A DNA stretch of 64,000 nt, taken from assembly GCA_037189525.1 (NCBI GenBank), contig JBBCJC010000002.1:288001-352000 (forward strand). Reading direction: 5' to 3'. Source of the stretch: Gemmatimonadales bacterium (GTDB lineage: Bacteria > Gemmatimonadota > Gemmatimonadetes > Gemmatimonadales > GWC2-71-9). Position 1 is the stretch's first letter. Every line of letters starts with the position of its first letter. Below are positions 30,228-52,400 of this stretch, in pieces. The position numbers and the translations under genes were made by a program. The notes below the pieces were generated by a model. It was not told the origin of the DNA, searched no databases, and worked only from the letters and a program-made list of their open reading frames with translations.

Positions 30228-30605
30228 TCAGGAACGCTTCGGGAAGAAGCGAACGTTCGGTAGGTGCGCAAAATCGGCGTCCATCGTCCACACTGTAGCT
30301 TCATACCGCATGGCCGTGGCATAAATGATACTGTCCGCGAGCGGCAGCTTGTGGAAGACCCCGAGTTGGGCGGCACTAATCGCCAAGGCGGCGTCCATCG
30401 GTACCGTCATACCCTGGTGAAGTACGGCGGCAACCTGCAACATATCGCTCGATCCCCGCTGTTGTAAAACTCGGCGGCACACCTCCGTCAGGACCACCGT
30501 GGGTACGACGAGACGGTCGACATCTTCGATTGCAGCTGCAAACTTCCCGGCATGGGAACTATCCGCAAAGTACTCCAGCCATGCCGACGAGTCGACCAGG
30601 TTCAC
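30228..30605 (-). CDS. vapC: VapC PIN-domain toxin
   Basis: VDSSAWLEY..VLTEV..LPLADSIIYATA..TMDADF. Confidence 0.92.
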   Translation of the reverse strand: MNLVDSSAWLEYFADSSHAGKFAAAIEDVDRLVVPTVVLTEVCRRVLQQRGSSDMLQVAAVLHQGMTVPMDAALAISAAQLGVFHKLPLADSIIYATAMRYEATVWTMDADFAHLPNVRFFPKRS

Positions 30606-30808
30606 ACGCGGTCTTTCTCTCGACGCACGGCGGTATCGATTCCCTTCAGCGCACCCCGCATTTCTCGCATCGATCGAATCGGAATGAACTCGATTCGGTT
30701 CTCGTACTGAAGTACTTGCACCTTTTGCCCTGGCTCGAGGCCAAGTGACTCCCGGATCTCCCGTGGAATGACCACTTGATACTTCGGCGAGACCGTTACA
30801 ATCGACAT
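30602..30808 (-). CDS. vapB: AbrB/MazE/SpoVT-family antitoxin
   Basis: VTVSPKYQVVIPREIRESLGLEPG; GGAGG RBS; overlaps the vapC start. Confidence 0.9.
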   Translation of the reverse strand: MSIVTVSPKYQVVIPREIRESLGLEPGQKVQVLQYENRIEFIPIRSMREMRGALKGIDTAVRREKDRV

Positions 30809-30933
30809 GACGTCCTCCATCGATAGCATGCTCGTAATACGATACGGCGATCGATTGCCCTTGGCAAGCCGTGAGGGCAATGCACGTATCGATCCCTTCA
30901 CGTGCCCTGCCGATCCGACAGCGGCACCGTTCG

Positions 30934-31359
30934 TCAATCGCCCCCTCGCTCGCTACGGACAGGCGCGCCGGGCGACACTGCCACTCGCCACTCGCGCCAC
31001 TCCACCTGCCGTGCCGTGATCACCTCACGCAGCTGTCGCTCCCGCCGGGTCAGTGTTGCGTCGCCGGTTTTGACCTCCACGAAGACGACCCGCTCGAGCT
31101 GGCCGCTCGACAGACCGTCGAACACCACCAGATCAACCGGCGATCCCAGAAACCGGACATCCTTCGGATTGAACTCGAAGCCCGGGAGATAGGGGAGCAG
31201 CTGTTCGGTCACCTTCCCGGTGACCACGGCCTGACTTCGCTGAATCGCGTCGCGCCGGACCTCCCGTTCATGACTGGAGCGTCCCAGCCATAGCAGACCG
31301 AGCCCCAACAGGACCCCGATCGCCAGCCCGACGACCAAACCCAACCCAAGATCTGACAT
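30934..31359 (-). CDS. Holliday-junction-resolvase-like PD-(D/E)xK endonuclease with N-terminal TM
   Basis: GKVTEQLLPY..F.PKDVRFLGSPVDLVVFDG..FVEVKTG..LTRRER. Confidence 0.85.
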   Translation of the reverse strand: MSDLGLGLVVGLAIGVLLGLGLLWLGRSSHEREVRRDAIQRSQAVVTGKVTEQLLPYLPGFEFNPKDVRFLGSPVDLVVFDGLSSGQLERVVFVEVKTGDATLTRRERQLREVITARQVEWREWRVAVSPGAPVRSERGGD

Positions 31360-36030: not shown

Positions 36031-37130
36031 GCGCGCTGCGTGGCTTCGTCCGAAAAGAAACCTGGCATCTGCTTCGCGATCGCCAGACGCTCGGCATTCT
36101 GATTTTGATGCCGTTGATCCAGGTTCTGCTCTTCGGTTTTGCGGTGCGCACGGAAGTCGACAACATTCGCCTCGCCATCGTCGACCCGACGCCGGACTAT
36201 CGGAGCGTAGAACTCCGAAGCCGCTTTGGCGCCACGTCGAACTTTCGGATCGTCGGAGCCGTCGGCAGCACTGCCGAGCTGCAGCCGCTGTTCGAGAGCG
36301 GACAGGTTCGCCAGGCAGTGGTCTTCGAACCGAGGTTTGCGGAACGGATCGGCCGCGGCGAGGCGGTTGCTATTCAACTCATCACCGACGCCACCGATCC
36401 GAATACCGGTAGCATCATGCAAGCGTACGCGATGTCGGTGATTCGCCAATACGAGGCCGAGCTGGCTCGGACGGCGCCGCGCGTGCGGATCGTGCCGCAG
36501 GTTCAGATGCGGTTCAACCCGACGCTCGAGAGCGTCAACCTCTTCGTGCCCGGCCTGATTGCCTTCGTGCTAACGCTCACCTCGGCGCTGATGACGGCCA
36601 TCTCGATCACACGCGAGAAAGAGATGGGCACCATGGAAGTGCTGCTCGTCTCGCCGCTCCGTCCCTGGCAGATCGTGGTGGGCAAGGTGATCCCGTACAT
36701 CGCGCTCGGTTTCGGGAATGTTCTGCTCGTACTGACGGCGGCTCGGGTGGTCTTCGGCGTTCCGATCAATGGCAACCCCGCGCTGCTTCTGGCGGAGAGC
36801 CTGCTCTATATCGTGGTCGCCCTCGCGCTCGGTGTGCTGATCTCGACCGTGGCGCCCTCGCAGCGGGTGGCCATGATGGCGGCGCTGGCCGGGTTGATGC
36901 TGCCGACCATGATGCTCTCGGGATTCATCTTCCCGATCGAGAGCATGCCGGCACCGCTCCGTGCGCTCTCCAACATCGTTCCGGCGCGCTGGTTCGTCAT
37001 CGTCGTGCGCGGCATCATGATCAAGGGCATCGGCATCGAACATCTCTGGCGCGAAACGCTCGTCCTCGTCGGCATGGCCACCACGCTGCTGACCTTGAGC
37101 GCCCGGCGGCTCGCCGTCCGGCTGGGATAA
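36027..37130 (+). CDS. ABC-2 type permease (YbhS-like)
   Basis: FVPGLI..SITREKEMGTME.LLVSPL..LSGFIFPI. Confidence 0.9.
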   Translation: MSALRGFVRKETWHLLRDRQTLGILILMPLIQVLLFGFAVRTEVDNIRLAIVDPTPDYRSVELRSRFGATSNFRIVGAVGSTAELQPLFESGQVRQAVVFEPRFAERIGRGEAVAIQLITDATDPNTGSIMQAYAMSVIRQYEAELARTAPRVRIVPQVQMRFNPTLESVNLFVPGLIAFVLTLTSALMTAISITREKEMGTMEVLLVSPLRPWQIVVGKVIPYIALGFGNVLLVLTAARVVFGVPINGNPALLLAESLLYIVVALALGVLISTVAPSQRVAMMAALAGLMLPTMMLSGFIFPIESMPAPLRALSNIVPARWFVIVVRGIMIKGIGIEHLWRETLVLVGMATTLLTLSARRLAVRLG

Positions 37131-37133
37131 CCC

Positions 37134-38276
37134 ATGCGCACCCTGCTCTTCCTGATTCGGAAAGAATACCTCCAGATTTTCCGCGATCGGGCCACGGTCT
37201 TCCAGATCTTCTTCATTCCGATCGTGCAGCTCCTGCTGCTCTCGAACGCGGCGACCTTCGGAATCACCAACGCGCGGATGCACGTCGTCGATCTCGACCG
37301 GAGCACGATGTCACGTGGTCTGGTGGAGCACCTCGTTGCATCGGGCCGGTTCGTGGTATCGTCGGCGGTGCCGTCGCAGGAGGCCGCCAATCAGAGCCTG
37401 CTCGATCGCGAGGCCACCGTGATCCTGACCATTCCGTCCCGCTTCGAGCGCGACCTGGTCCGCCAGGGCACCGCCCCGGTGCAGCTCGTTCTCAACGCGG
37501 AGGAGGGAGCGGCCGCGGGGATCGTTCAGGCCTATGCGCTGCAGATCATCGGCGACTATGGTCGCCAGCTTGGCATCGAACTGCGCCCCCAAACGGACCC
37601 GCGGATCGATCCGGCCCCGAGGGCGGCCACGGCGGCGTTCGACGTTCGTGCCCGCAGCTGGTTCAACCCGACGCTCAACTACAAGCACTACATGGTGCCG
37701 GGCATCCTCGTCTCCCTCGTCACGATCATCGGGATGCTGCTCACCGCGCAGAACATTGCCCGGGAAAAGGAGGCCGGCACGCTCGAGCAGCTCAATGTCA
37801 CCCCGATCACCAAGGGGCAGTTCATCGCGGGAAAGCTGCTGCCCTTCTGGCTGCTGGCGCTGGTGATGTTCAGCCTCGGTCTGATCGCCGGTAAGCTGGC
37901 GTTCGGAATTCCGATGCGCGGCAACCTGCTGCTCGTCTTCTTCTCGGCGGCGGTATATCTGACCGTGGCCCTGGGGACCGGCCTCTGGATCGCCACCATC
38001 GCGTCGACCCAGCAGCAGACCATGTTCGTCTCGTTCTTTGTGCTGGTGATTTACCTGCTGATGAGCGGTCTCTTCACACCGATCGACAGCATGCCCACCT
38101 GGGCGCAGTGGATGGCCGAGCTGAATCCGGTCAAGCATTTCGTGGTCATCATGCGTGCCGTGCTGGTGCGAGGCGCCGATCTGAGCGGTATCGCCGTACC
38201 GCTCGGCGCGCTGGCGACGCTCGGCCTGCTGGTGTTGACGGCTGCAGTCCGCCAGTATTCCAAGACTCACGGCTGA
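37134..38276 (+). CDS. ABC-2 type permease (YbhR-like)
   Basis: MVPGIL..IAREKEAGTLEQLNVTPI..MSGLFTPI. Confidence 0.9.
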   Translation: MRTLLFLIRKEYLQIFRDRATVFQIFFIPIVQLLLLSNAATFGITNARMHVVDLDRSTMSRGLVEHLVASGRFVVSSAVPSQEAANQSLLDREATVILTIPSRFERDLVRQGTAPVQLVLNAEEGAAAGIVQAYALQIIGDYGRQLGIELRPQTDPRIDPAPRAATAAFDVRARSWFNPTLNYKHYMVPGILVSLVTIIGMLLTAQNIAREKEAGTLEQLNVTPITKGQFIAGKLLPFWLLALVMFSLGLIAGKLAFGIPMRGNLLLVFFSAAVYLTVALGTGLWIATIASTQQQTMFVSFFVLVIYLLMSGLFTPIDSMPTWAQWMAELNPVKHFVVIMRAVLVRGADLSGIAVPLGALATLGLLVLTAAVRQYSKTHG

Positions 38277-38291
38277 CCTATCAGACCGCGC

Positions 38292-38343
38292 ATGCTCCGC
38301 GTCCTGATTGCCCTATGCCTGGCTGGCCCCCTGGCGGCGTCAA
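38292..38343 (+). pseudogene. 5' stub (signal peptide only) of a DUF885 gene homologous to 52420
   Basis: MLRVLIALCLAGPL versus MIRVLLAFCIAAPL; same position directly after a ...QYSKTHG permease end. Confidence 0.7.
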
Positions 38344-38592
38344 CGGCGCGATCTACTAGTTGGCGCGCTCAATCAGGCCGGGTTCCAATGCAAGCCACCG
38401 CAAGGCGCGCACCATATCCTGGCGGATTTACGGCAATCCGCCGAGTGGCTGACTATCGAGGGCGGCGTGGCGACGGTGCCGGGCACCAGCTTCTTTTCCG
38501 ATTCCCAGATGGGGCGGGACTACACACGATTCGCGTTCTGTAGGACGGAGGATCCGCTGCACGCGGCGGTGGAGCGGCGGCGGCGGTTGTAA
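38344..38592 (+). pseudogene. Degenerate copy of the aminotransferase 3' end
   Basis: RRDLLVGALNQAGF..PQGA..ILAD..WLTIEGGVATVPGTSFFSD..RFAFC matches 27862-28134, with a small internal deletion. Confidence 0.9.
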
Positions 38593-39044
38593 AGCCTGGC
38601 TGCGAGCCACCGACCGGAGCAGCTGAGGTGGCGGACAGTCCCGTTCGCGATTGGTCACCTAAGGCCAGTTGTTCGTCCGGCTGCGTTCATGTGAGCTTCC
38701 ACATGATCCGCATAAGTTGCGTATCTACAACATGTTACAGGATGACAGAACCTGGCTCATAACTTGAGATAGCATCACGCCAACCCCTTCCGGCGAGGCT
38801 ACGGGCAATGCATGCACCCTTCATCGTTGGGGCGATCGGGGGGGCGATCAGCTCTTCCTCCTTCAAGAGCACTCCCCAGTTGCAGCAGACCACGTCGTCC
38901 GATACCTGGTCCTGCAGTCCACCTCGGGGCCGCCAACTAATGTCATCGAACGAACGGCAGCAGTTGCTCAACCGACTGCTACCCGTTCACGTCGTCCTGA
39001 TGCTAGCATGCATTGAATGTCTACAAGCTTTGCGAGATATGTAG

Positions 39045-39761
39045 ATGGGAAACGCTGGCACCGCACAAGTATACATCCGGAACGGCATCTATTTCGTGAC
39101 GATCGACGGTGAGGGCATCGTTATGGACCTTCCGGGTGATCGGTACTATGGCCTTAGTGAGTTCGGTGCTATGGTCTGGCAAGCGATTGAACAAGGTCAC
39201 ACGGCTGCTGTGCCATTCCCTGAAAACCAATTTGCCCAGCAAGTGGACGAATGGGTACGGCTCGGCTTGATGACATTTCACGATCGGCCCCAAGTAGAGA
39301 TACCTATACGAAAGGAAGCCGGTACGCCTGCCATTAAGGCGTTTGATGATACTGTAGCACTGCAAGCCTCCTTTTCATGGACAGTGCTATGTCGCCTGTT
39401 TCTCTCTACGTGGCGGGTCAACCGAATACTCCGTCATCAAGGGATATGCGTTGCGTTGAAGCAAATTCAAGAGATTGCCATCGTCGACGAACTTAAAACG
39501 GACCATTGCGAACGACAACTTGGCAAGATCATCCGTACCTATCGCCTAGGGCGGCGCGTACTTAGCCAAGGTCAGGAAGATTGCTTGCCCCGCTCGCTGG
39601 CCCTGGCATATGTCCTCCGTCATGCTGGCATCGAAGCCGAAGTGTGCTTCGGAGTACGGCAGTTCCCGTTCTATGCGCATGCGTGGGTGGAAGCTAATGG
39701 AAGAGTTCTTAACGATGAGATCACAACGATCGGCTCCTACGCGGTTCTAGCACGATTCTGA
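39045..39761 (+). CDS. Lasso peptide maturation protein B (fused RRE/PqqD-like domain + transglutaminase-like Cys peptidase)
   Basis: N-terminal DGEGIVMDLPGDRYYGLSEFGAMVW (RRE); C-terminal CLPRSLAL..FGVR..PFYAHAWVE..VLND (Cys/His/Asp). Confidence 0.93.
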   Translation: MGNAGTAQVYIRNGIYFVTIDGEGIVMDLPGDRYYGLSEFGAMVWQAIEQGHTAAVPFPENQFAQQVDEWVRLGLMTFHDRPQVEIPIRKEAGTPAIKAFDDTVALQASFSWTVLCRLFLSTWRVNRILRHQGICVALKQIQEIAIVDELKTDHCERQLGKIIRTYRLGRRVLSQGQEDCLPRSLALAYVLRHAGIEAEVCFGVRQFPFYAHAWVEANGRVLNDEITTIGSYAVLARF

Positions 39762-39782: not shown

Positions 39783-41657
39783 GTGCATGGTTTTGTTGTG
39801 CGGTATATGAAAGCGATTGATGAACAGCAACCGCCAGTGCTTGACGTTTGCCAGGATGACAGGATTGGCCTAGCTGCAGGAAGGCGCTTCCGACTGCTAG
39901 TGCGGCCACTCCCGACAACACCAGAAGCAGAAGCCGAACGTCAACCGTATGTATTCGGGCACACCGTCGCTGTGTATCAGGGCCGGATAGACAATCGGCG
40001 TGAGATCATCGATCGAATTGGAGACTCACTGCTTGAGCAGGTCGGGGACAGCGAGCTTATTGCACGTGCCTATTCTAAGTGGGGGGCCAACTTCCCTGCT
40101 ATAGTACTGGGGGAGTACTCATTTGCGTTGATCAACCAGCATACAGAACAACTTATTGCCGGAAGAGACAGCCTTGGTATCGGTCATTTGTTCCAATATC
40201 AAGATACGAGCGCTGTCTGGGTCGCATCAAACCTGGAGATTCTGCTCGCCGCACTTCCGAGTCGCCCCTCATTTGACCGTAGTGCGCTGGCTGAATATAT
40301 CGCCACCGGCGGCTTACTCGTATCCGGTCGAACTATCTATACTGGGATCGATGAAGTTCCAGCCGCACATGTTCTAGTTCAGAGTGGAGCTGCCGTTACC
40401 GTTACGCGATACTGGGAGCCTGTTCCGGAATCACAGGCTCGTCTTCGCGGACCTGACGAATATGATGAAGAATTCAGGTCAATCCTATCGGCAGCCGTGA
40501 AGGCGGCTCTCCGATCCAATACACCAGTATGGTCGGACCTTTCGGGTGGACTCGATTCATCTACAGTGACCGCGCTCGCTGCGTCGCTTGATTGCAGTGG
40601 TAACGACGGTATAACAGCATTCTCGATGTCAGCATCGATGACAGCACTAAGCAACGAGAGCCCCTTTCAGGATGATTTCATTGCCCGTTACCCTATTCAA
40701 CAACATCGCCTCGACATTGATGACTATTTGAGCTTTGGGACACCCGAACCGCCATCATGCCACCCGTCTAAAGCGATCATTTATCGGCCGATTCGTCAGG
40801 CTACCGCCGAACTTTTTGCTCAGCATGGCGCGCAGACTCACCTCACTGGCCGTGGTGGCGACAACATCTTTTGCGGCGATGAGTTTCCACCAAGATACCT
40901 TGCCGGGTTGTTACGTGGACTCAAACTGCGCCAATGGATCCGAGAGATAAACGATTGGGCACGTCAAGGAAAACGGAGTCTATGGAATCTTGTGTGGCAT
41001 TGTAGTCGGTCGAGCTTAACGGACTTGTACGCCGGCGAAGCAGACCGCGGAATCGTTCCGACTTGGTTGATCGCTCCGTTTCGTGACCAGGTAACCCAGA
41101 TAGATGAAGGTCAGTGGACGTCAGGATACCGATTGTACAGCGACCCGGGTCGAGAACTTCAGTATCGCTCAATACAAATGACGTCAAGGGTTGTCCGCTT
41201 CATGCCTGTTGGCGATGAGCGGCACCCGTTGCTATACCGGCCCCTTGTAGAATTTGTTCTCGATCTTCCCTGGGAGCACCTCCTTCGACCAGATGAGAAC
41301 CGCATTATCCAGCGACGCGCTCTACGCAACGTCCTTCCAGAAAGCATCCGTCTTCGGACCTCAAAGACCAGTGCGACCCCCGTGTTTCTACGTGGGTTGC
41401 GCCGCCACTGGACAACTGTACGACACTATACCGAGGGACGGCGCCTAGCGGAGCTTGACATCCTTGACCCTATCCCTTTTCACGCCGCGTGCGAGCGCCT
41501 TCGGCATGGGCTGCTAGCAAAGCAGTTTCGCTACCTAGTTGGTGCCTTGACCCTCGAAATCTGGCTGGAGGCGAACTCCAATCCAGTGCGTGACCAAGCT
41601 ACAGCCGGATTCTTCGCCGCCGACCACAGCATAGGCCAAATGAAGTGCATGAACTAA
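39783..41657 (+). CDS. Lasso cyclase C (asparagine-synthetase-like macrolactam synthetase)
   Basis: GRIDNR, RDSLG, LSGGLDSS PP-loop, LTGRGGD, HPLLYRPLVEF; lacks the N-terminal glutaminase Cys; adjacent to B. Confidence 0.92.
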   Translation: MHGFVVRYMKAIDEQQPPVLDVCQDDRIGLAAGRRFRLLVRPLPTTPEAEAERQPYVFGHTVAVYQGRIDNRREIIDRIGDSLLEQVGDSELIARAYSKWGANFPAIVLGEYSFALINQHTEQLIAGRDSLGIGHLFQYQDTSAVWVASNLEILLAALPSRPSFDRSALAEYIATGGLLVSGRTIYTGIDEVPAAHVLVQSGAAVTVTRYWEPVPESQARLRGPDEYDEEFRSILSAAVKAALRSNTPVWSDLSGGLDSSTVTALAASLDCSGNDGITAFSMSASMTALSNESPFQDDFIARYPIQQHRLDIDDYLSFGTPEPPSCHPSKAIIYRPIRQATAELFAQHGAQTHLTGRGGDNIFCGDEFPPRYLAGLLRGLKLRQWIREINDWARQGKRSLWNLVWHCSRSSLTDLYAGEADRGIVPTWLIAPFRDQVTQIDEGQWTSGYRLYSDPGRELQYRSIQMTSRVVRFMPVGDERHPLLYRPLVEFVLDLPWEHLLRPDENRIIQRRALRNVLPESIRLRTSKTSATPVFLRGLRRHWTTVRHYTEGRRLAELDILDPIPFHAACERLRHGLLAKQFRYLVGALTLEIWLEANSNPVRDQATAGFFAADHSIGQMKCMN

Positions 41658-41737: not shown

Positions 41738-41923
41738 ATGGAACGGAAGCAGAGCGCCCTCAGGCAGATCAACAGCACTGGTGGCAAGACCGAGTTCACG
41801 CCGACGCCGCTCGGCACTGTGTCCGGCACGAGGGTCCTGGGCCTGGATCGCCTCACGGGTACGATTCCTGGTTGTACCGCGTGCGACTTTAACACAGACT
41901 ACGCGAAGGGTGTGTTCGGCTGA
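41738..41923 (+). CDS. Lasso peptide precursor A (61 aa, MERKQSALRQINSTGGKTEFTPTPLGTVSGTRVLGLDRLTG-TIPGCTACDFNTDYAKGVFG)
   Basis: GAGGTG RBS before ATG 41738; follows the cyclase; leader ends LG..RLTG with Thr at -2; Asp at core position 9; followed by a stem-loop. Confidence 0.82.
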   Translation: MERKQSALRQINSTGGKTEFTPTPLGTVSGTRVLGLDRLTGTIPGCTACDFNTDYAKGVFG

Positions 41924-41962
41924 AAATCGCTGAACCATACACCTGCAACAAAGGATGACAAC

Positions 41963-42018
41963 GGTGTGCACCCGTTCACTAGCCTCAAGCTAGCCTAGTA
42001 CACGGAACGGGTGCCACC
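41963..42018 (+). terminator. Stem-loop downstream of the precursor gene
   Basis: GCACCCGTTC (41968-41977) pairs with GAACGGGTGC (42005-42014); inner ACTAG/CTAGT, outer GGTG/CACC; no U-tail. Confidence 0.6.
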
Positions 42019-42068
42019 AATGTCAGCCGAACCTGTCGCTGCCAGTGTAGGTCTGCACCGGAGACAAG

Positions 42069-43676
42069 ATGGTTTATCGTAAGAATCCTCACGAGACTGT
42101 TGGCTTGGTGTTGATCGCTTCTTGCGACGTTGATCCCTTACGCCAGGCCCTTCAGGTGGCTCTAGCACAGCGTGGAATCCGCTGCATCGTCGAGACGGCT
42201 ACGTGGGCCGCAGTGCAACCGGTCGACATGGCTACAAATCCCGAAGTACTACTACTACTCCCTTGGGATCTTGTCGCTGATCTTTCCTGGTGTCGCGGTG
42301 TCCCAGCCGATCCACCAGACCTCAGACAGCTTGAGTTGCGAATGGAAGAAGTCATCCAGTGGCTCGCAACACGGCACAACACCACGTTCGCGTATCTCCC
42401 TGCACCAATCCCACCGATTTGCGGCCGGGGACGCGACAATCGAATCCTAGCAAATACTCTCGTACGCGCCGTCAGCCGACTTTCGCCTATCGTATTGCCG
42501 TCAGAGATGTTCTCCTGCACCAGCTTATTCGATCATGGGTGCGCTATCGCCGATACAGCCCTTAGCACAGCCGCTGAGATACTCATTCGGACTGCAATGG
42601 CTGAATCGACAACTACGGCTAAGGTCCTTGTAACGGACTGTGATCATGTGCTGTGGAGTGGGGTAGTGGCGGAAGATGGTGTCGAAGGCATTTCATTTGG
42701 TCCTTGTGGGCAAGGATATCCCCATTTTGCCTACCAACGACTGCTAGTTCGACTGAAGCGTGACGGGATATTGCTCGCCGCGGTAACACGGAATGATCCC
42801 GAGGTAGTCGGTCCATTACTCGCAAGCGGTCGGTTGCAGCTCAACGACGGGGATTTTGTAGCAGGGATCGCCAGCCACGATGCTAAATCAGCACAGATCC
42901 GGCAGTTATCGGAACAGCTCGGACTGTCCTTGGATTCTTTTGTATTCGTCGACGATAATCCAGTGGAGCTGGCTGAAGTTGCCAGTGCACTTCCCAAGGT
43001 TCGGTGTCTTCAGTTCCCCGAGGACGTGCGCAACTTCCCCTCGTTTCTCGAGGAACTGGCTGGGCTATTCCCCAGAGGAATCAGGACCGCAGAGGATCGC
43101 GACCGAACCGCATACTACCGCCAGCGATTGGAGGGTGTACAACCGAGTCAACTGTCGGGGGCGGATCTCAGCCAATTTCTGCGGGGCTTGGAAATGCGAC
43201 TAACCGTCGAGAATCGAACGCACAGTGATTCCACAAGGGCGCTACAGCTCATCAATAAGACCAACGTATTCAACTTGAACGGCCATCGTTTTTCCGATCG
43301 CGAGATAACAGAGCTGCTTGTCAACGGAGGCCAGCTATGGACGGCAACGCTCGAGGACCGGACCGGCAATCACGGTGAAGTATTGGCATGCTTAACCGAT
43401 GGGGACAATGTGGTACGGTCTTTTGCAATGTCGTGTCGTGTTCTTCAGCGGCGAGTTGAGTATGCTTTCCTTGTCTGGTTCACGCGCCTTTCGAACGCAC
43501 CCCAGAAATGGCAGTTTGTTCCTACCGACCGGAACGAACCAATGCGGCGCTTCTTCGCTGACCCTGCCTTTAGGTCGTTAGGACCCGACGAGCCAATGCG
43601 GCTCGACACCAAAGCTTTTGCGACTACACACGCTGACGACCTAAGTTTATTCGATCTTCGTACCGTAGGAGTATGA
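42069..43676 (+). CDS. FkbH-like HAD-IIIC phosphatase/glyceryl transferase
   Basis: KVLVTDCDHVLWSGVVAEDG (DxD), FVDDNPVE, RALQLINKTNVFNL, C-terminal MSCRV acyl-carrying Cys motif. Confidence 0.88.
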   Translation: MVYRKNPHETVGLVLIASCDVDPLRQALQVALAQRGIRCIVETATWAAVQPVDMATNPEVLLLLPWDLVADLSWCRGVPADPPDLRQLELRMEEVIQWLATRHNTTFAYLPAPIPPICGRGRDNRILANTLVRAVSRLSPIVLPSEMFSCTSLFDHGCAIADTALSTAAEILIRTAMAESTTTAKVLVTDCDHVLWSGVVAEDGVEGISFGPCGQGYPHFAYQRLLVRLKRDGILLAAVTRNDPEVVGPLLASGRLQLNDGDFVAGIASHDAKSAQIRQLSEQLGLSLDSFVFVDDNPVELAEVASALPKVRCLQFPEDVRNFPSFLEELAGLFPRGIRTAEDRDRTAYYRQRLEGVQPSQLSGADLSQFLRGLEMRLTVENRTHSDSTRALQLINKTNVFNLNGHRFSDREITELLVNGGQLWTATLEDRTGNHGEVLACLTDGDNVVRSFAMSCRVLQRRVEYAFLVWFTRLSNAPQKWQFVPTDRNEPMRRFFADPAFRSLGPDEPMRLDTKAFATTHADDLSLFDLRTVGV

Positions 43677-46366: not shown

Positions 46367-48790
46367 ATGATCTCCCTAGTGCATGACGTCCGTCAGGCAG
46401 TTCGCAACATCCGCAATCACCCCGGCTTCGCGAGTCTAGCCGTTCTGGCTCTCGCACTCGGTATAGGCGCTGCTACGACTATCTTCAGCGTCCTCCAGCA
46501 TGTCCTTTTCAAGCCATTCCCCTATACTGATGCAGAACGTATAGTCGTTGTTCAAGTCCGGCGGTCAGATGCCGATCGTCGCAGCTGGCGCTCAGCCTTT
46601 CCGATCGCGGAGTTCCGCGAGTATGCCACACAGAGCGCCGTCTTCGCTGAGGTCGCAGCCGATGCTGTGGATGAGGTGCTGTTTGATACGTCGGAAGGCA
46701 TAGAGCATCTGCGTGGTGCGCTCGTGTCTGGCAACCTGTTTGCTTTTCTCGGCGTCCATCCTGTCCTAGGTAGGGGCATAGCGCCAGATGATGCGGCACC
46801 CGGGGCACCGGCTGTTTTCGTCATTAGCAATCGAATGTGGCGGGCACGGTTTGGCTCCGACCCTTCGGTCGTCGGGCAAACCTATGCGCTAAACGGAATG
46901 CCGACGGTACTGGTCGGCATCATGCCACCTCAATTCGCTCACCTGGACGCAGACCTCTGGCGGCCGGTGTCGCTCGATCAGCCGAGCCGTGATGCAGGTA
47001 GTCGTTTCTACAATCTGAAGGCGCGCCTCGCTCCCGGAGTAAGCACTACTGCTGCCGAGGCCCACCTGCAGTCGATCGCCACCAGAATCGCACCAGTCTT
47101 TCCGAGAATCTATCCGGAAGGCTATCGTGTGCACGTCGTCCGGTGGATCGACAGCGTAGTAGGCCCATTTCGCGCTACACTCTACATACTTGCTGCCGCC
47201 GTTGCAGTCCTCCTATTGATTGCCTGTGCCAACGTCGCCAATATGCTCTTAGCGCGTGCCAGTACGCGCGAAGGCGAACTGGCTATACGCGCCTCTCTCG
47301 GCGCCAGCCGGAGCGCTCTCGTCAGACAGCTCCTGATCGAGAGCTCGCTGTTGGCTGCGGCTGGAGCCCTCATCGGCGTCCTGGCAGCGGTCTTGGGTGT
47401 TACCTTCCTGGTGCGCATCCTTCCCGATCAGCTAATCCCTCCCGAGGCAACTATACGGATCAATCTCCCGGTGCTTGTCTTTGGCATCGTGCTCGCCTTC
47501 AGCACAGTACTCATCTTCGGCCTAGTACCCGCGTTACGGACCGCACATCGCGATCTCGTTTCATCCGTCCCGTCGGCAGCGCGCAGCACCAGTACAAAGA
47601 GCCAGACCACGCTCAGCAGTATGCTCGTAGTCGCCCAAGTTGCGTTAGCGCTCGTTCTTGCAGTCGGGGCCGGTCTTCTCATCCGTACGTTTGTCAATGT
47701 ACGAAACGTTCAGCTCGGCTTCGACCCAGCAAACACGTTGGCACTAACAGTTCGTTTGCCGTCGAATGGCTCACCACTATCCGGTTCGCTGCTTGTCGGT
47801 CAAATTCTTGACAGATTACGGACTGTTCCCGCTGTGACGGCAGCGACAGTCACAAACGGGATCCCCGGATACGGCGGTCTGCGGACTGAGGTCGAAGTTC
47901 CAGGCCAGCCCACGGTTGAGCCAGGTACCATGTCACTCGTTCAATTCTCAAGCGAGGATCTCGCCAGCGTGCTTCGCCTCCCGATCCTGCGAGGTCGTTT
48001 TTTGTCACGAGACGATATCACCGCTGGTCGGCGGGTAGCCGTTGTCAACGAGGCACTGGCACAACGGTATTTTGGTCATACGGACATCGTTGGGCGCTCG
48101 GTGCGCTTGAACATACTCGCGCTCCTGGCTGGCAATGCGGCGGACACGACAAGTTTCGAAGTGGTCGGCATTACCGCAGATGCTAAGAATCACGGGATCC
48201 AAGAGCCGGCAATTCCGGAGTCGTTCGTTCCATACTCACTCGCAAGCCTACCAAATTATGTACTGCTGATCCGAACTTCTGGATCACAGTTGGCGCCGTT
48301 TGACATCACCCGACAGCTGCGAACTGTCGACCGCGGCATCGTAGTCACTGAGAACCGGCGGCTTATCGAGTACCTACAAAAGTTCTCGTACTCCGAACCT
48401 CGTTTCGGCGTCGCCGTCCTCGGTATGTTTGCTAGTACTGCCCTTATCCTGGTGGCTCTTGGAGTGTATGGCGTGGTTGGGTATACGACCTCACGCCGAA
48501 CTCGAGAATTCGGCATCCGGCTTGCTCTTGGTGCGACGCCGGCGACCATTCAAAGACATGTGATCGGCCGTTCCCTCCGCCTAGTTGGGTTTGGTCTCGT
48601 ATTCGGGCTAATCGCCGCATTTGCAGTTACCCAACTCATCAGAAGTCAACTCTGGGGTGTACCGCCACGGGATCCCATGACCTTAGCCATTGCCGTCAGC
48701 GTGGTACTCATCGTGGGAATTGTAGCATGCTGGGCCCCCGCACGCCGGGCAACAAGTATTGATCCGACCGTTACGATGCGGAGCGAATAA
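46367..48790 (+). CDS. ADOP-type duplicated MacB/FtsX ABC permease (orphan, no ATPase)
   Basis: DVRQAVR..PGF..LALGIGA; LLIACANVANMLLARA..E.AIR.SLGA; RTREFGIRLALGA; PARRATSIDP. Confidence 0.92.
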   Translation: MISLVHDVRQAVRNIRNHPGFASLAVLALALGIGAATTIFSVLQHVLFKPFPYTDAERIVVVQVRRSDADRRSWRSAFPIAEFREYATQSAVFAEVAADAVDEVLFDTSEGIEHLRGALVSGNLFAFLGVHPVLGRGIAPDDAAPGAPAVFVISNRMWRARFGSDPSVVGQTYALNGMPTVLVGIMPPQFAHLDADLWRPVSLDQPSRDAGSRFYNLKARLAPGVSTTAAEAHLQSIATRIAPVFPRIYPEGYRVHVVRWIDSVVGPFRATLYILAAAVAVLLLIACANVANMLLARASTREGELAIRASLGASRSALVRQLLIESSLLAAAGALIGVLAAVLGVTFLVRILPDQLIPPEATIRINLPVLVFGIVLAFSTVLIFGLVPALRTAHRDLVSSVPSAARSTSTKSQTTLSSMLVVAQVALALVLAVGAGLLIRTFVNVRNVQLGFDPANTLALTVRLPSNGSPLSGSLLVGQILDRLRTVPAVTAATVTNGIPGYGGLRTEVEVPGQPTVEPGTMSLVQFSSEDLASVLRLPILRGRFLSRDDITAGRRVAVVNEALAQRYFGHTDIVGRSVRLNILALLAGNAADTTSFEVVGITADAKNHGIQEPAIPESFVPYSLASLPNYVLLIRTSGSQLAPFDITRQLRTVDRGIVVTENRRLIEYLQKFSYSEPRFGVAVLGMFASTALILVALGVYGVVGYTTSRRTREFGIRLALGATPATIQRHVIGRSLRLVGFGLVFGLIAAFAVTQLIRSQLWGVPPRDPMTLAIAVSVVLIVGIVACWAPARRATSIDPTVTMRSE

Positions 48791-48830: not shown

Positions 48831-49865
48831 TCATCGGGCCTTGTGGCCTGGCCCGACCGTAGCTCGATGTTCGATCGACGATCGCTCCTTTCGAAGCGAG
48901 ATTCCGTAACGCTGTAGCTCCTTGAAGAAGGTCGTACGGCCCAAGCCGAGAGCTAGTGCCGTACGCTCAGCATTCCAACTATTTGCAGCACAAAAGTCAA
49001 GAAGGCGGCCCCGCATCGTAACAGGTAGTGGTGTTTGTCGAGGCGCAACGCCACTTGGCATGTGAATTACCGCTGTCCCAAGTCCGAGGGATTCGGCCAC
49101 GACCCGACCATCGAGAACTCTCTCATCGGCGAGAAAGACAGCCCGCTCGATCGTACTCCAGAGTTCGCGCACGTTCCCTGGCCACCGGTGCCCGAGCAAC
49201 ACAGGTTCTGCACTTGGCGCCAGCTCGGCACCAGCCGGCGTAGCGAAATAACGGGCCAACAATATGACATCGCCCCAACGCTGGTCGAGAGGCAGCAGCG
49301 TAAGTACCGCACCAACTACCCGCTGCATCAGATCATATCGGACCAACCCATCGGCGACCTTATTACCCACATTCTCCTGGACTGCTGCGATGACGCGGAA
49401 GCGGCTTTGCCGCTTGGTTGTCTCGCCGACTCTACGGAAATTCTTGTTGTCCAAGACTCGAAGAAGCTTGCCCTGCGATTCATAAGGCATACTGCAAAGC
49501 TCATCGAGAAACAGGGTACCATTGTTCGCATCCTCGATCAAGCCAGATACACTTTCGATTGCACCGCTGAACGCCCCTTTGCGATGACCATATAGGGTGC
49601 CCTCGACAAGTTCGCGCGGGATGGCCGCGCAGTTCACATCAACGAGAGCGCCAGGCCGCCCACTCCATTGATGGATTTCCCTTGCAAACAACTCTTTCCC
49701 TGTTCCTGTAGCGCCGATGAGCAGAATCGGCAGGTCGCTTTTGGCAAAGCGTCTCGCATTTGCGACAGCATGTCGTATTTCTGGGGACGTTCCGAGTATC
49801 GTCGTTTCGGCAACTTCCCCGGCAACCTCGCCCGAAATCTCTACATCGCGAGCAGCATGCCGCAA
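48831..49865 (-). CDS. Sigma54-interaction (AAA+) Fis-family regulator lacking an N-terminal sensor domain
   Basis: GATGTGKE, VNCAAIP, GAFSGA, GTLFLDE, WPGNVREL, C-terminal HTH. Confidence 0.9.
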   Translation of the reverse strand: MRHAARDVEISGEVAGEVAETTILGTSPEIRHAVANARRFAKSDLPILLIGATGTGKELFAREIHQWSGRPGALVDVNCAAIPRELVEGTLYGHRKGAFSGAIESVSGLIEDANNGTLFLDELCSMPYESQGKLLRVLDNKNFRRVGETTKRQSRFRVIAAVQENVGNKVADGLVRYDLMQRVVGAVLTLLPLDQRWGDVILLARYFATPAGAELAPSAEPVLLGHRWPGNVRELWSTIERAVFLADERVLDGRVVAESLGLGTAVIHMPSGVAPRQTPLPVTMRGRLLDFCAANSWNAERTALALGLGRTTFFKELQRYGISLRKERSSIEHRATVGPGHKAR

Positions 49866-50517: not shown

Positions 50518-51467
50518 CTATCGATCTTTACGGACGTCCGTGGGCGCTTCGGCGAGGAGCTTGTAAAGCGACGGTCGCGAGATACCCATCAGGCGCCCAG
50601 CCTTGGCTTTGTTGCCATCTGTGGAGCGCATCATCTCTTGGGCTTCCTGGTGCTTGGTTTGACGCGCCTTCGCTTGTACTCAAATCGGCTTGGGAATATC
50701 GGATACTTGGATGGGACGTGGACTCCGCAGTCTGCTAGCGATGTACTGACAAACTGACCGGAGTTGTCTCATGTTTCCGGGCCACGGCGCTGTGCCAAGG
50801 ATCGCAGCAGCAGCAGCAGCAGACAGTACCGGCACAAAGTCGCGCCCCAGCTCGACGAATGCCTCCTGCAAGTACGCTGTCGCGAGTGGGTACTATTTCC
50901 CGATGGCGGTCACGCAGCGACGGCAGGGAACTGTAAGGCACTCCGCACGATAGAACAGTTCTTCGAAAAACAGGCCTTCTGGGAACGGGCTGCCAGATCC
51001 ACCGAGGTCGCGCAGATGATTCGGACATCAACTTTGCGCGGATGGCTATCGCCGATTCGTCGAATGAAGCCGGTCTCGAGAATGCCAAGGAGAGTTTGTT
51101 GAAAGCGATGTGATGCGTGTCCCAGCTCATCGAGGAGCAACGTCCCGGTATGTGCCTGTTCGACTAGGCCAACACGATCGTGATGGGCGCCTGTATATGC
51201 CCCTTTCGTTGAGCCGAGCAACTCTGCTTGCCGAAGTTCATCCGGAATGGACGTGACCGAAAGTTCCACAAAAGGGCTCGCCACGCGGGGTGATATCCGG
51301 TGTATATACCTCGCAAGCGTACTCTTCCCGGTACCCGTCGGACCAAGAATGAGTATTGGATAGGGTGTTTCCGCCAGATCCCTCACAAGGTGGTCAACCG
51401 TTGGGTGGGGTACAAGCTTCGCCTGTGTGCTCATGATACCAGCTTCCACGTCTTGATATGGGTACAC
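50518..51467 (-). pseudogene. Frameshifted second sigma54-type AAA+ regulator
   Basis: GPTGTGKS, GAYTGA and LLLDE in one frame; LPSLRDR, WPGNMRQL and the Fis HTH GNKAKAGRLMGISRPSLYKLL (stop 50518) in other frames. Confidence 0.8.
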
Positions 51468-51943: not shown

Positions 51944-52400
51944 AGCAGCAACTCGACGACGGCGCCCAAACGGCACCCTGCGCCCGATCCGCGCCGAATA
52001 CTTTTTGATCAACATGGTGTCGATAATCATCTTCCCGTTCCTGATCCGCCCCATGCCCGACGTGATCTTCGGCATCGGCGGCGATCGGTTCGACGCCTAC
52101 CTCACCGAGCGGCAACAGAGCCTGCCCGGATTCATCCGAAGCGCATTCCGACCATGATGTTCCTTTATCACACTCGCGCTGCTGAGCGCAGCTATTACCG
52201 CTCCGGCGCAGGACACGCTCCGACTGGAGGCGCTCCACGCCGCCACGCGGGATCGCGACCCGCGGGCGCGCCAGCTGCGGGCGGCGCTGGTGCGCGGTGC
52301 CGATCTCAGCGGTATCGCGGCACCGCTCGGCGCACTGGCGCTACTCGGCCTGCTGGTGTTAACGATCGCGGTCCGCCAGTATTCCAAGACGCACGGTTAG
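51944..52400 (+). pseudogene. Fused remnants: tetR 3' end, tolC 5' end, ABC permease 3' end
   Basis: NGTLRPIRAEYFLINMVS..LPGFIRSA matches tetR; QDTLRLEALHAA..RARQL matches tolC and is joined to LVRGADLSGIA..RQYSKTHG matching 38154-38276. Confidence 0.88.

Follow-up and report, generated by a model that had tools for sequence, protein, structure and literature searches.

What does a lasso gene cluster make when the small open reading frame behind its cyclase encodes a peptide that would start with threonine and carry its cysteines inside the ring? The question is raised by a 61-codon frame in a 64,000-nucleotide stretch of Gemmatimonadales DNA (hereafter the window). Our sequence comparisons indicate that this frame is most likely the precursor of a lasso peptide with ring cysteines and a threonine start, and the case for this reading draws on the enzymes encoded next to it, on a family of related precursors and on a structural model of leader binding.

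A lasso cluster in the order B-C-A

The first-pass annotation had assigned coordinates and residues to a precursor frame and its core and had given the gene order as B-C-A; all of these stand. Translation of the forward strand gives a 61-residue product, the leader of which ends in LDRLTG and the C-terminal 20 residues of which read TIPGCTACDFNTDYAKGVFG; residue 42 begins at 41861 and residue 61 ends at 41920. This core bears Asp at position 9, Cys at positions 5 and 8 only, and Phe10, Tyr14, Lys16 and Phe19, the tail being free of Cys. The sequence GAGGTG lies 5 bases upstream of the ATG. On the 5′ side, on the same strand, the precursor gene is preceded by a gene for a fused B protein and then by the C gene (Table 1), and the B-C-A locus is a genuine lasso cluster.

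Table 1. Coordinates of the cluster, its neighbors and the island borders, in window numbering
Feature	Position	Strand	Basis or remarks
Left direct repeat, 3′ end of ABC-2 permease gene	38152..38272	+	121 nt, 85% identical to 52276-52396
Lasso B: predicted leader-binding (RRE/PqqD-like) domain fused to transglutaminase-like leader protease	39045..39761	+	lasso_biosyn_B2, Transglut_core3
Lasso cyclase C (asparagine-synthetase-like, ATP-dependent lactam synthetase)	39783..41657	+	Asn_synthase, GATase_7
Precursor gene A	41738..41923	+	61 codons plus stop; family profile matches, alignment, complex model with B
Leader, 41 residues	41738..41860	+	motif P22-x-x-L25-G26-x-V28; invariant L39-T40 at -3/-2
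Predicted core, 20 residues	41861..41920	+	ring Thr1 to Asp9; Gly4, Cys5, Cys8; tail Tyr14-Ala15-Lys16
RNA hairpin between precursor and next gene	41953..42028	+	fold of 41915-42075; no T-run after
FkbH-domain/HAD-IIIC protein	42069..43676	+	TIGR01686 FkbH 192.3 bits, cut-off 146.65
S9 (prolyl-oligopeptidase family) serine peptidase, 870 residues	43721..46333	+	Pfam Peptidase_S9 6.5e-27
Duplicated MacB/FtsX-type permease	46367..48790	+	Pfam MacB_PCD 6.2e-35, FtsX 3.3e-25, two stretches each
Right direct repeat	52276..52396	+	121 nt, 85% identical to left copy

The B protein (238 residues) matches the NCBIfam lasso model NF033537 (lasso_biosyn_B2) over its C-terminal half with 75.4 bits against a cut-off of 33, and Pfam Transglut_core3 at 1.1e-18; the catalytic Cys and His of such proteases are present as Cys180 and His212, both invariant in 8 homolog rows. 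Its N-terminus matches Pfam PqqD weakly (18.3 bits, under the cut-off of 23.4), and the nearest solved chain by sequence is PDB 9x90_B, a PqqD-family lasso chaperone, which matches B residues 18-51 at an E-value of 0.015. The leader-binding domain is about 20 residues shorter here than in 7 homologs.

The C protein (624 residues) matches Pfam Asn_synthase at 1.4e-28 (101 bits, cut-off 21) and GATase_7 at 1.3e-17, as expected of the cyclase beside a lasso precursor. Its best NCBIfam match is the lasso isopeptide-bond cyclase model at 1.5e-66, the 225 bits lying below the narrow cut-off of 525. The SGGLDSS loop is invariant in 33 homologs, and the metagenomic cyclase homologs P0003-P0019 are 47-62% identical to the window protein. 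Farther afield, the phylum to which G430 belongs (G430 holds the distant cluster L106) yielded two homologs at E<=1e-90 from 401 genomes, both 36% identical, and a single-protein scan of genome contigs with C gave 26 pattern matches, none of them a relative.

A small family of precursors

We built a family profile from the window precursor and the peptide of one other locus, L025, and searched it against 1.84 billion representative proteins, which returned nine at E<=0.001, the window's own included. The other eight, with E-values from 1.2e-27 to 2.3e-4, are a near-copy of the L025 peptide and seven more; the precursor thus has nine relatives in total, namely eight database proteins and L025. 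Other searches mark the limits of the family: tblastn against 159 lasso loci, which had been retrieved with a 33-row cyclase alignment, found the precursor in one locus (L025) and B in 116, and no other of the 159 loci that the alignment-based scans retrieved belongs to the family. The family profile found no member in 4 genomes carrying other retrieved lasso loci; the precursor itself, searched against its own genome and 60 relatives, found nothing better than an E-value of 0.023 outside the window, and a word-index search of 5.8 billion proteins with it returned itself alone. Judged by these searches, the precursor family is small and comes from soil metagenomes.

The relatives bear on gene order as well. 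L025 is a contig of 1171 bases with a cyclase fragment 48% identical to the window C and, 31 bases after the end of this fragment, a 60-codon frame whose aligned part is 46% identical to the window precursor, a direct example of the order C-then-A. Two further relatives probably have the same company: the precursor P0124 and the cyclase P0003 come from the same source with a longest contig of 7502 bases for both, as do the precursor P0126 and the cyclase P0004 with 6035 bases, and P0003 and P0004 are the two closest cyclase homologs of the window C. We infer from the contig sizes, rather than from contig sequence, that these are co-located precursor-cyclase pairs. By such family evidence, together with the GAGGTG ahead of the start codon and a stable hairpin beyond the stop, the frame at 41738-41923 is a real gene and more than a chance frame.

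Predicted leader binding by the B protein

The alignment of the family has ten rows (the window, L025 and P0122-P0129), which count as about nine independent ones because L025 and P0122 are near-identical. Its leader positions Leu25, Gly26, Val28, Leu39 (-3) and Thr40 (-2) are invariant in all ten rows, as are Gly4, Cys8, Asp9 and Ala15 in the core, and Pro22 and Lys16 are each present in nine. The long-spaced leader motif noticed in the earlier reading of the window is thereby borne out as a family motif, P-x-x-L-G-x-V at -20 to -14; the textbook YxxPxL leader motif sits six residues nearer the cleavage site.

A model of B in complex with the precursor places leader residues 19-30 in contact with B residues 25-38, and the cleavage-site residues without confidence. 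It scored 0.66, a pass that may reflect likeness to solved structures because such leader-binding complexes are among those solved, and the best of 3 controls scored 0.00; in benchmarking, 116 of 157 solved complexes attain 0.66, compared with 2 of 215 mismatched pairs. At least 57% of contacts are common to the runs, and the partner pLDDT is at least 45. Read with this in mind, the model supports binding of the leader to B.

The model also bears on the idea that some other frame is the true substrate, such as the one at 38808-39044 upstream of B, which abuts the B start. That frame has no Pfam or NCBIfam match and none of the pattern of Thr(-2) and an acidic residue; by contrast, the 41738 frame has homologs beside homologous cyclases and passes the binding model, and we give the idea scarcely any credence.

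The probable cleavage register and ring

Where B would cut decides which residues form the ring. A comparison with homologous precursors, which the first-pass annotation had suggested as a check on its reading of cleavage after LTG and a ring from Thr1 to Asp9, has now been run, and it supports that register: the Leu at -3, the Thr at -2 and Asp9 are each present in ten of ten rows, and position -1 is Gly or Ala across the family. Given this register, Thr occupies the penultimate leader position in every row, and the acidic residue sought at core position 7, 8 or 9 is Asp9 in all of them; no other acidic residue in that span is invariant. Core position 1 is Thr in seven rows, Ser in two and Glu in one (P0123). 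Thus, the family alignment favors a cut after LTG and a ring closed between Thr1 and Asp9. Two other starts, at Gly41 and at Cys46, fare worse: the former would need a ring of 10 residues, and the latter would need both Cys5 and Asp13, neither of which is conserved (two of the ten rows lack Cys5, and four have Asn, Val or Thr at position 13).

More distant clusters allow the register to be examined beyond the family. A leader-only profile searched against the 26,996 stop-to-stop frames of the retrieved loci matched L025, the window and then a small frame directly behind the cyclase of the metagenome cluster L023/L024, the leader of which aligns end to end with the family leader (E-value 0.071) and ends in LTA, ahead of a canonical Gly1...Asp8 core. 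In the more distant clusters L162 and L106, Thr at -2 is likewise followed by Gly-rich cores. L029, also more distant, has the same leader spacing, and there a ring of 7-9 residues fits only with Thr at -3; the register is therefore not absolute in this clade of enzymes.

Because of L029 and the Glu1 of P0123, we keep as a rival a register shifted by one residue, in which B would cut after Thr42, placing Thr40 at -3, to give an eight-residue Ile1-Asp8 ring with cysteines at 4 and 7. In L029 the leader stands in the same register (P-20, L-17, G-16, V-14), and a ring of 7-9 residues would need the cut to lie one residue beyond the usual; in P0123 a Glu holds the position taken as residue 1. Against this, a shifted position 1 would vary across the family (Ile, Asp, Glu, Thr, Val or Gly) while -1 would be a conserved Thr or Ser, which is the reverse of what is usual, and L023/L024, L162 and L106 all fit Thr at -2. 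We consider the shifted register unlikely.

Two of the retrieved fused-B clusters merit description in their own right. The L029 precursor frame (9-176) has a Trp/Phe-rich core, for which a lasso ring fits only as just described, and L030 has two tandem precursors (314-475 and 541-660) whose Trp/Phe-rich cores end in aromatic residues.

A predicted route to the mature peptide

With cleavage after LTG as the preferred register, the following route can be proposed. The leader motif (residues 22-28) would bind the N-terminal leader-binding domain of B, and the protease half of B, with Cys180 and His212, would cut after Leu-Thr-Gly. C would then activate the Asp9 side chain with ATP and join it to the amino group of Thr1, giving a nine-residue macrolactam with the tail threaded through it. 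The small invariant Ala15 may lie inside the ring, with Tyr14 above and Lys16 below; across the family, Ala15 is flanked by Tyr or Asp at 14 and by Lys or Arg at 16, which makes it a plausible threading point, and Tyr14, Lys16 and Phe19 are the bulky residues that could serve as plugs. Finally, Cys5 and Cys8 might oxidize to an intra-ring disulfide after export, or their thiols might remain free or bind a metal. What is inferred in this scheme is where B cuts, that the ring closes and is threaded, which residues act as plugs and what state the cysteines are in; as a whole, the explanation that the frame is the predicted substrate of the adjacent B and C enzymes strikes us as probable.

Cysteines in the predicted ring

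A CxxC inside the ring had been singled out as a possible disulfide, metal site or acylation target. As a conserved unit the pair does not hold up: Cys8 is invariant and Cys5 is not, and the cores have from one to four cysteines, namely one in P0123 and P0129, two in the window, P0122, L025 and P0125, three in P0124 and P0126, and four in P0127 and P0128, with Cys3, Cys5 and Cys11 present in varying numbers and Cys8 always. The conserved feature, as the alignment has it, is Cys8 beside Asp9 rather than the CxxC pair. An intra-ring disulfide cannot, on these counts, be what the family has in common: members with one or three cysteines cannot pair all their thiols internally, so that what they share would be a thiol in the ring, whether free, bound to a metal, modified or engaged in an intermolecular bond. 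In the window peptide itself, a Cys5-Cys8 disulfide is possible; as its only two cysteines are residues of the predicted ring, any disulfide would run from ring to ring. As to acylation of a ring cysteine, no acylating enzyme could be tied to the peptide.

How such a peptide relates to the described classes can be judged as far as the available portions of two sources go. In that of PMC13352647, disulfides are ring-loop and ring-tail in class I, absent from class II, ring-tail in class III and tail-tail in class IV; in that of PMC13178200, class V is marked by a Lys-to-C-terminus isopeptide made by a clostripain-like transpeptidase. Like the peptides of classes I and III, the window peptide would have Cys in the macrolactam ring; unlike those of classes I, III and IV as described there, it has Cys5 and Cys8 both in the ring and none in the tail, which agrees with the earlier view that this pair falls outside the usual classes and is a pairing that none of these three has. 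No clostripain-like gene was found among the scanned cluster and island frames, the peptidase present being of the S9 family. A ring-to-ring disulfide matches none of the five classes described in these portions (PMC13352647, PMC13178200). We entertain tentatively, with more doubt than confidence, the reading that the family is a further lasso class with a Thr- or Ser-initiated nine-residue ring, the function of which resides in its ring thiols as a metal or redox site or as a ring-ring disulfide.

Downstream genes as candidates for tailoring

The genes that follow the precursor raise the possibility that the island tailors the lasso peptide by means of the FkbH-like enzyme, the S9 peptidase or both: through the former, a ring thiol or Lys16 would receive an acyl or glyceryl group, and the latter would trim or re-ligate the variable C-terminus. 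The arrangement invites this reading, as the genes share the strand and the low GC of B-C-A and are separated by short gaps (146, 45 and 34 bases). So do the precursors: Cys8 is invariant in them, Lys16 nearly so, and their C-termini differ widely in length. The FkbH-like protein also keeps the Asp-x-Asp of HAD enzymes as D190 and D192, which are invariant together with Cys456 in 32 homolog rows. For the peptidase, there is a precedent in class V, named only recently, which in the available portion of PMC13178200 is defined by a peptidase with transpeptidase activity.

Several lines of evidence stand against this. The precursor and the FkbH-like gene are separated by a strong hairpin: the region 41915-42075 folds at -57.9 kcal/mol, a stability with a z of -3.66 that 0 of 200 shuffles attain. 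The FkbH-like protein found no locus in the tblastn against the 159 lasso loci, and these have no FkbH relative within 6 kb of the cyclase. It has 654 homologs, the closest 44-51% identical, and among the best 120 of the 654 none could be paired with a close cyclase homolog by longest contig size. Two homologs from the same genus (48-49% identical) have genes for MBOAT, GDSL, acyltransferase, GNAT, ATP-grasp and glycosyltransferase proteins as neighbors and no lasso genes. As for the protein itself, it matches PDB 3slr by sequence and fold (E-value 1.9e-18; AF2 model pLDDT 84.8). Searches with its N- and C-terminal parts gave nothing useful in Pfam at E-values up to 10, and HAD-IIIC and FkbH_N names only in an atlas search. 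FkbH proteins are known, from the work on FkbH and OzmB, to have a carrier-protein partner nearby; none of a carrier-protein family was found among the island frames scanned with Pfam, the small frames having been covered less than exhaustively. Our literature search found no paper linking lasso peptides with FkbH.

The S9 peptidase reaches 83.6 bits against the Atxe2 lasso isopeptidase model NF033523, below its cut-off of 400, and the match comes from the catalytic domain alone (residues 684-855). Its family has 3 copies in its own genome and matches in 21 of the 41 genomes searched (its own included), and no close cyclase was found in the genomes with such matches; in the 159 lasso loci, tblastn found it in 19. 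Moreover, the L023/L024 cluster has glycosyltransferases in place of the FkbH or S9 genes. On this evidence, we regard tailoring by the island genes as quite unlikely. The MacB/FtsX-type permease encoded next is, by its domains, a possible exporter.

In the same-genus loci L192 (G021:C1, 5893-13686) and L193 (G001:C393, 7265-14191), the FkbH homolog is accompanied by MBOAT, GDSL-like, acyltransferase_3, GNAT and ATP-grasp genes, a layout reminiscent of a carrier-dependent acylation of a surface polymer of the Dlt kind.

The low-GC island

The cluster lies in an island of about 14 kb, which spans about 38.5 to 51.8 kb and has a GC fraction of 0.52-0.57, against 0.64-0.68 outside it. Direct repeats flank it (Table 1), and their similarity extends into the first codons of a DUF885 gene; no tRNA gene was seen at the borders, and no integrase was seen either. 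In an empty-site test, an ABC-2 permease gene was found within 1.5 kb in 0 of 7 loci with a DUF885 ortholog, and synteny therefore leaves the insertion of the island unconfirmed. A sigma-54 promoter pattern gave 57 matches against 60 expected, which is no signal, and a terminator scan found no site after the precursor gene. No RNA run was listed among sequencing runs that hold the sequence.

This setting suggests another alternative, that an acquired island carries the cluster as a passenger, silent or in decay, from which no mature peptide is made. The low GC, the repeat flanks, the truncation of two sigma-54 activators and the gene fragments that lie at either border would be in keeping with decay, as would the shortened leader-binding domain of B, the lack of an ATP-binding exporter gene beside the cluster and the fact that no cyclase homolog was found at E<=1e-60 in 400 other genomes of the window's phylum. 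Set against these, all three genes are intact, their catalytic residues are conserved, and the precursor keeps every family-invariant position, and we accord the passenger a rather small probability.

Several gene remnants were recorded in and around the island. At its left border, 38308-38592 (+) is a fragment that encodes no more of a class I/II aminotransferase than its last ~90 residues, at the C-terminus (positions 281-359 of 361 in Pfam), and the frame ending at 30298 has a C-terminal motif similar to it. At the right border, 52000-52340 holds short degenerate pieces of an efflux operon: two match 36905-36938 and 36949-36967, and another resembles the N-terminus of TolC. These pieces point to a second, broken copy of the efflux operon that lies upstream. 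The two sigma-54 activator genes, 48831-49865 (-) and 50910-51467 (-), encode little beyond the AAA+ core, and the second, of 185 residues, looks truncated. Elsewhere in the window, 30228-30937 (-) carries genes for a PIN-domain toxin and a MazE/AbrB-type antitoxin that overlap by 4 bases, a VapBC-like pair.

Comparison with known lasso peptides

Caulosegnins and astexin-1 are class II lasso peptides with nine-residue rings closed on Asp9. The window system resembles such class II peptides in its predicted leader-binding domain, its transglutaminase-type protease and its cyclase related to asparagine synthetase; its precursor likewise places Thr at -2 and an acidic residue at position 9 and has a tail with bulky side chains. 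It is unlike them in that the family starts with Thr (Ser or Glu in relatives), has a ring with 1 to 3 cysteines of which Cys8 is invariant, has its leader motif set back from the cut by six residues more than the textbook YxxPxL, and comes with the order B-C-A and a fused B.

The nearest relative with full context is L023/L024, where C is 38% and B 34% identical to the window's. It shares the B-C-A order, the fused B and the leader architecture (there ending in LTA), and it differs in that its canonical Gly1...Asp8 core has no Cys and its neighbors are glycosyltransferases.

Position 1 of lasso peptides tolerates more than the old rule allows, with Leu1 and Trp1 peptides known as well. The available portion of PMC12670498 gives Gly, Cys, Ser or Ala as the observed first residues, with Asn1 new in 2025; the window peptide would have Thr there, which is absent from the four listed, a point against the proposed start. 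The Asn1 peptide of that portion, metanodin, is a close parallel: it too stems from a soil metagenome, its first residue is likewise non-canonical and was assigned from Thr(-2) and the size of the ring, and its precursor is one that automated tools would probably miss (PMC12670498). Unlike metanodin, which as described there was produced, confirmed by MS/MS and encoded by a proteobacterial A-B-C cluster, the window peptide is a prediction and has ring cysteines.

Our literature search found no lasso peptide with Thr1, that is, with an N-terminal threonine. We also searched the LassoPred supplementary table of predicted lasso precursors (4749 unique cores per its paper) for strings of the family: five ring strings and three leader strings had 0 occurrences, and three shorter strings occurred in unrelated rows only (for DYAK, 2 of the 4 occurrences were inspected). 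No description of the precursor family was found in the literature and the LassoPred table searched, and it is set apart by its first residue, its leader spacing and its ring with cysteines.

Implications

Lasso peptides are valued as very stable scaffolds and as antibiotics, and the rules of ring formation are used by every tool that mines for them. The B-C-A set spans just 2.9 kb and so lends itself readily to a test by heterologous expression. A family in which the core begins with Thr or Ser and a Cys adjoins the ring-closing Asp would widen these mining rules and explain why such precursors have been missed; moreover, it would point to a ring chemistry, be it a free thiol, a metal site or a ring-to-ring disulfide, that is absent from the five classes as the available portions of their descriptions give them.
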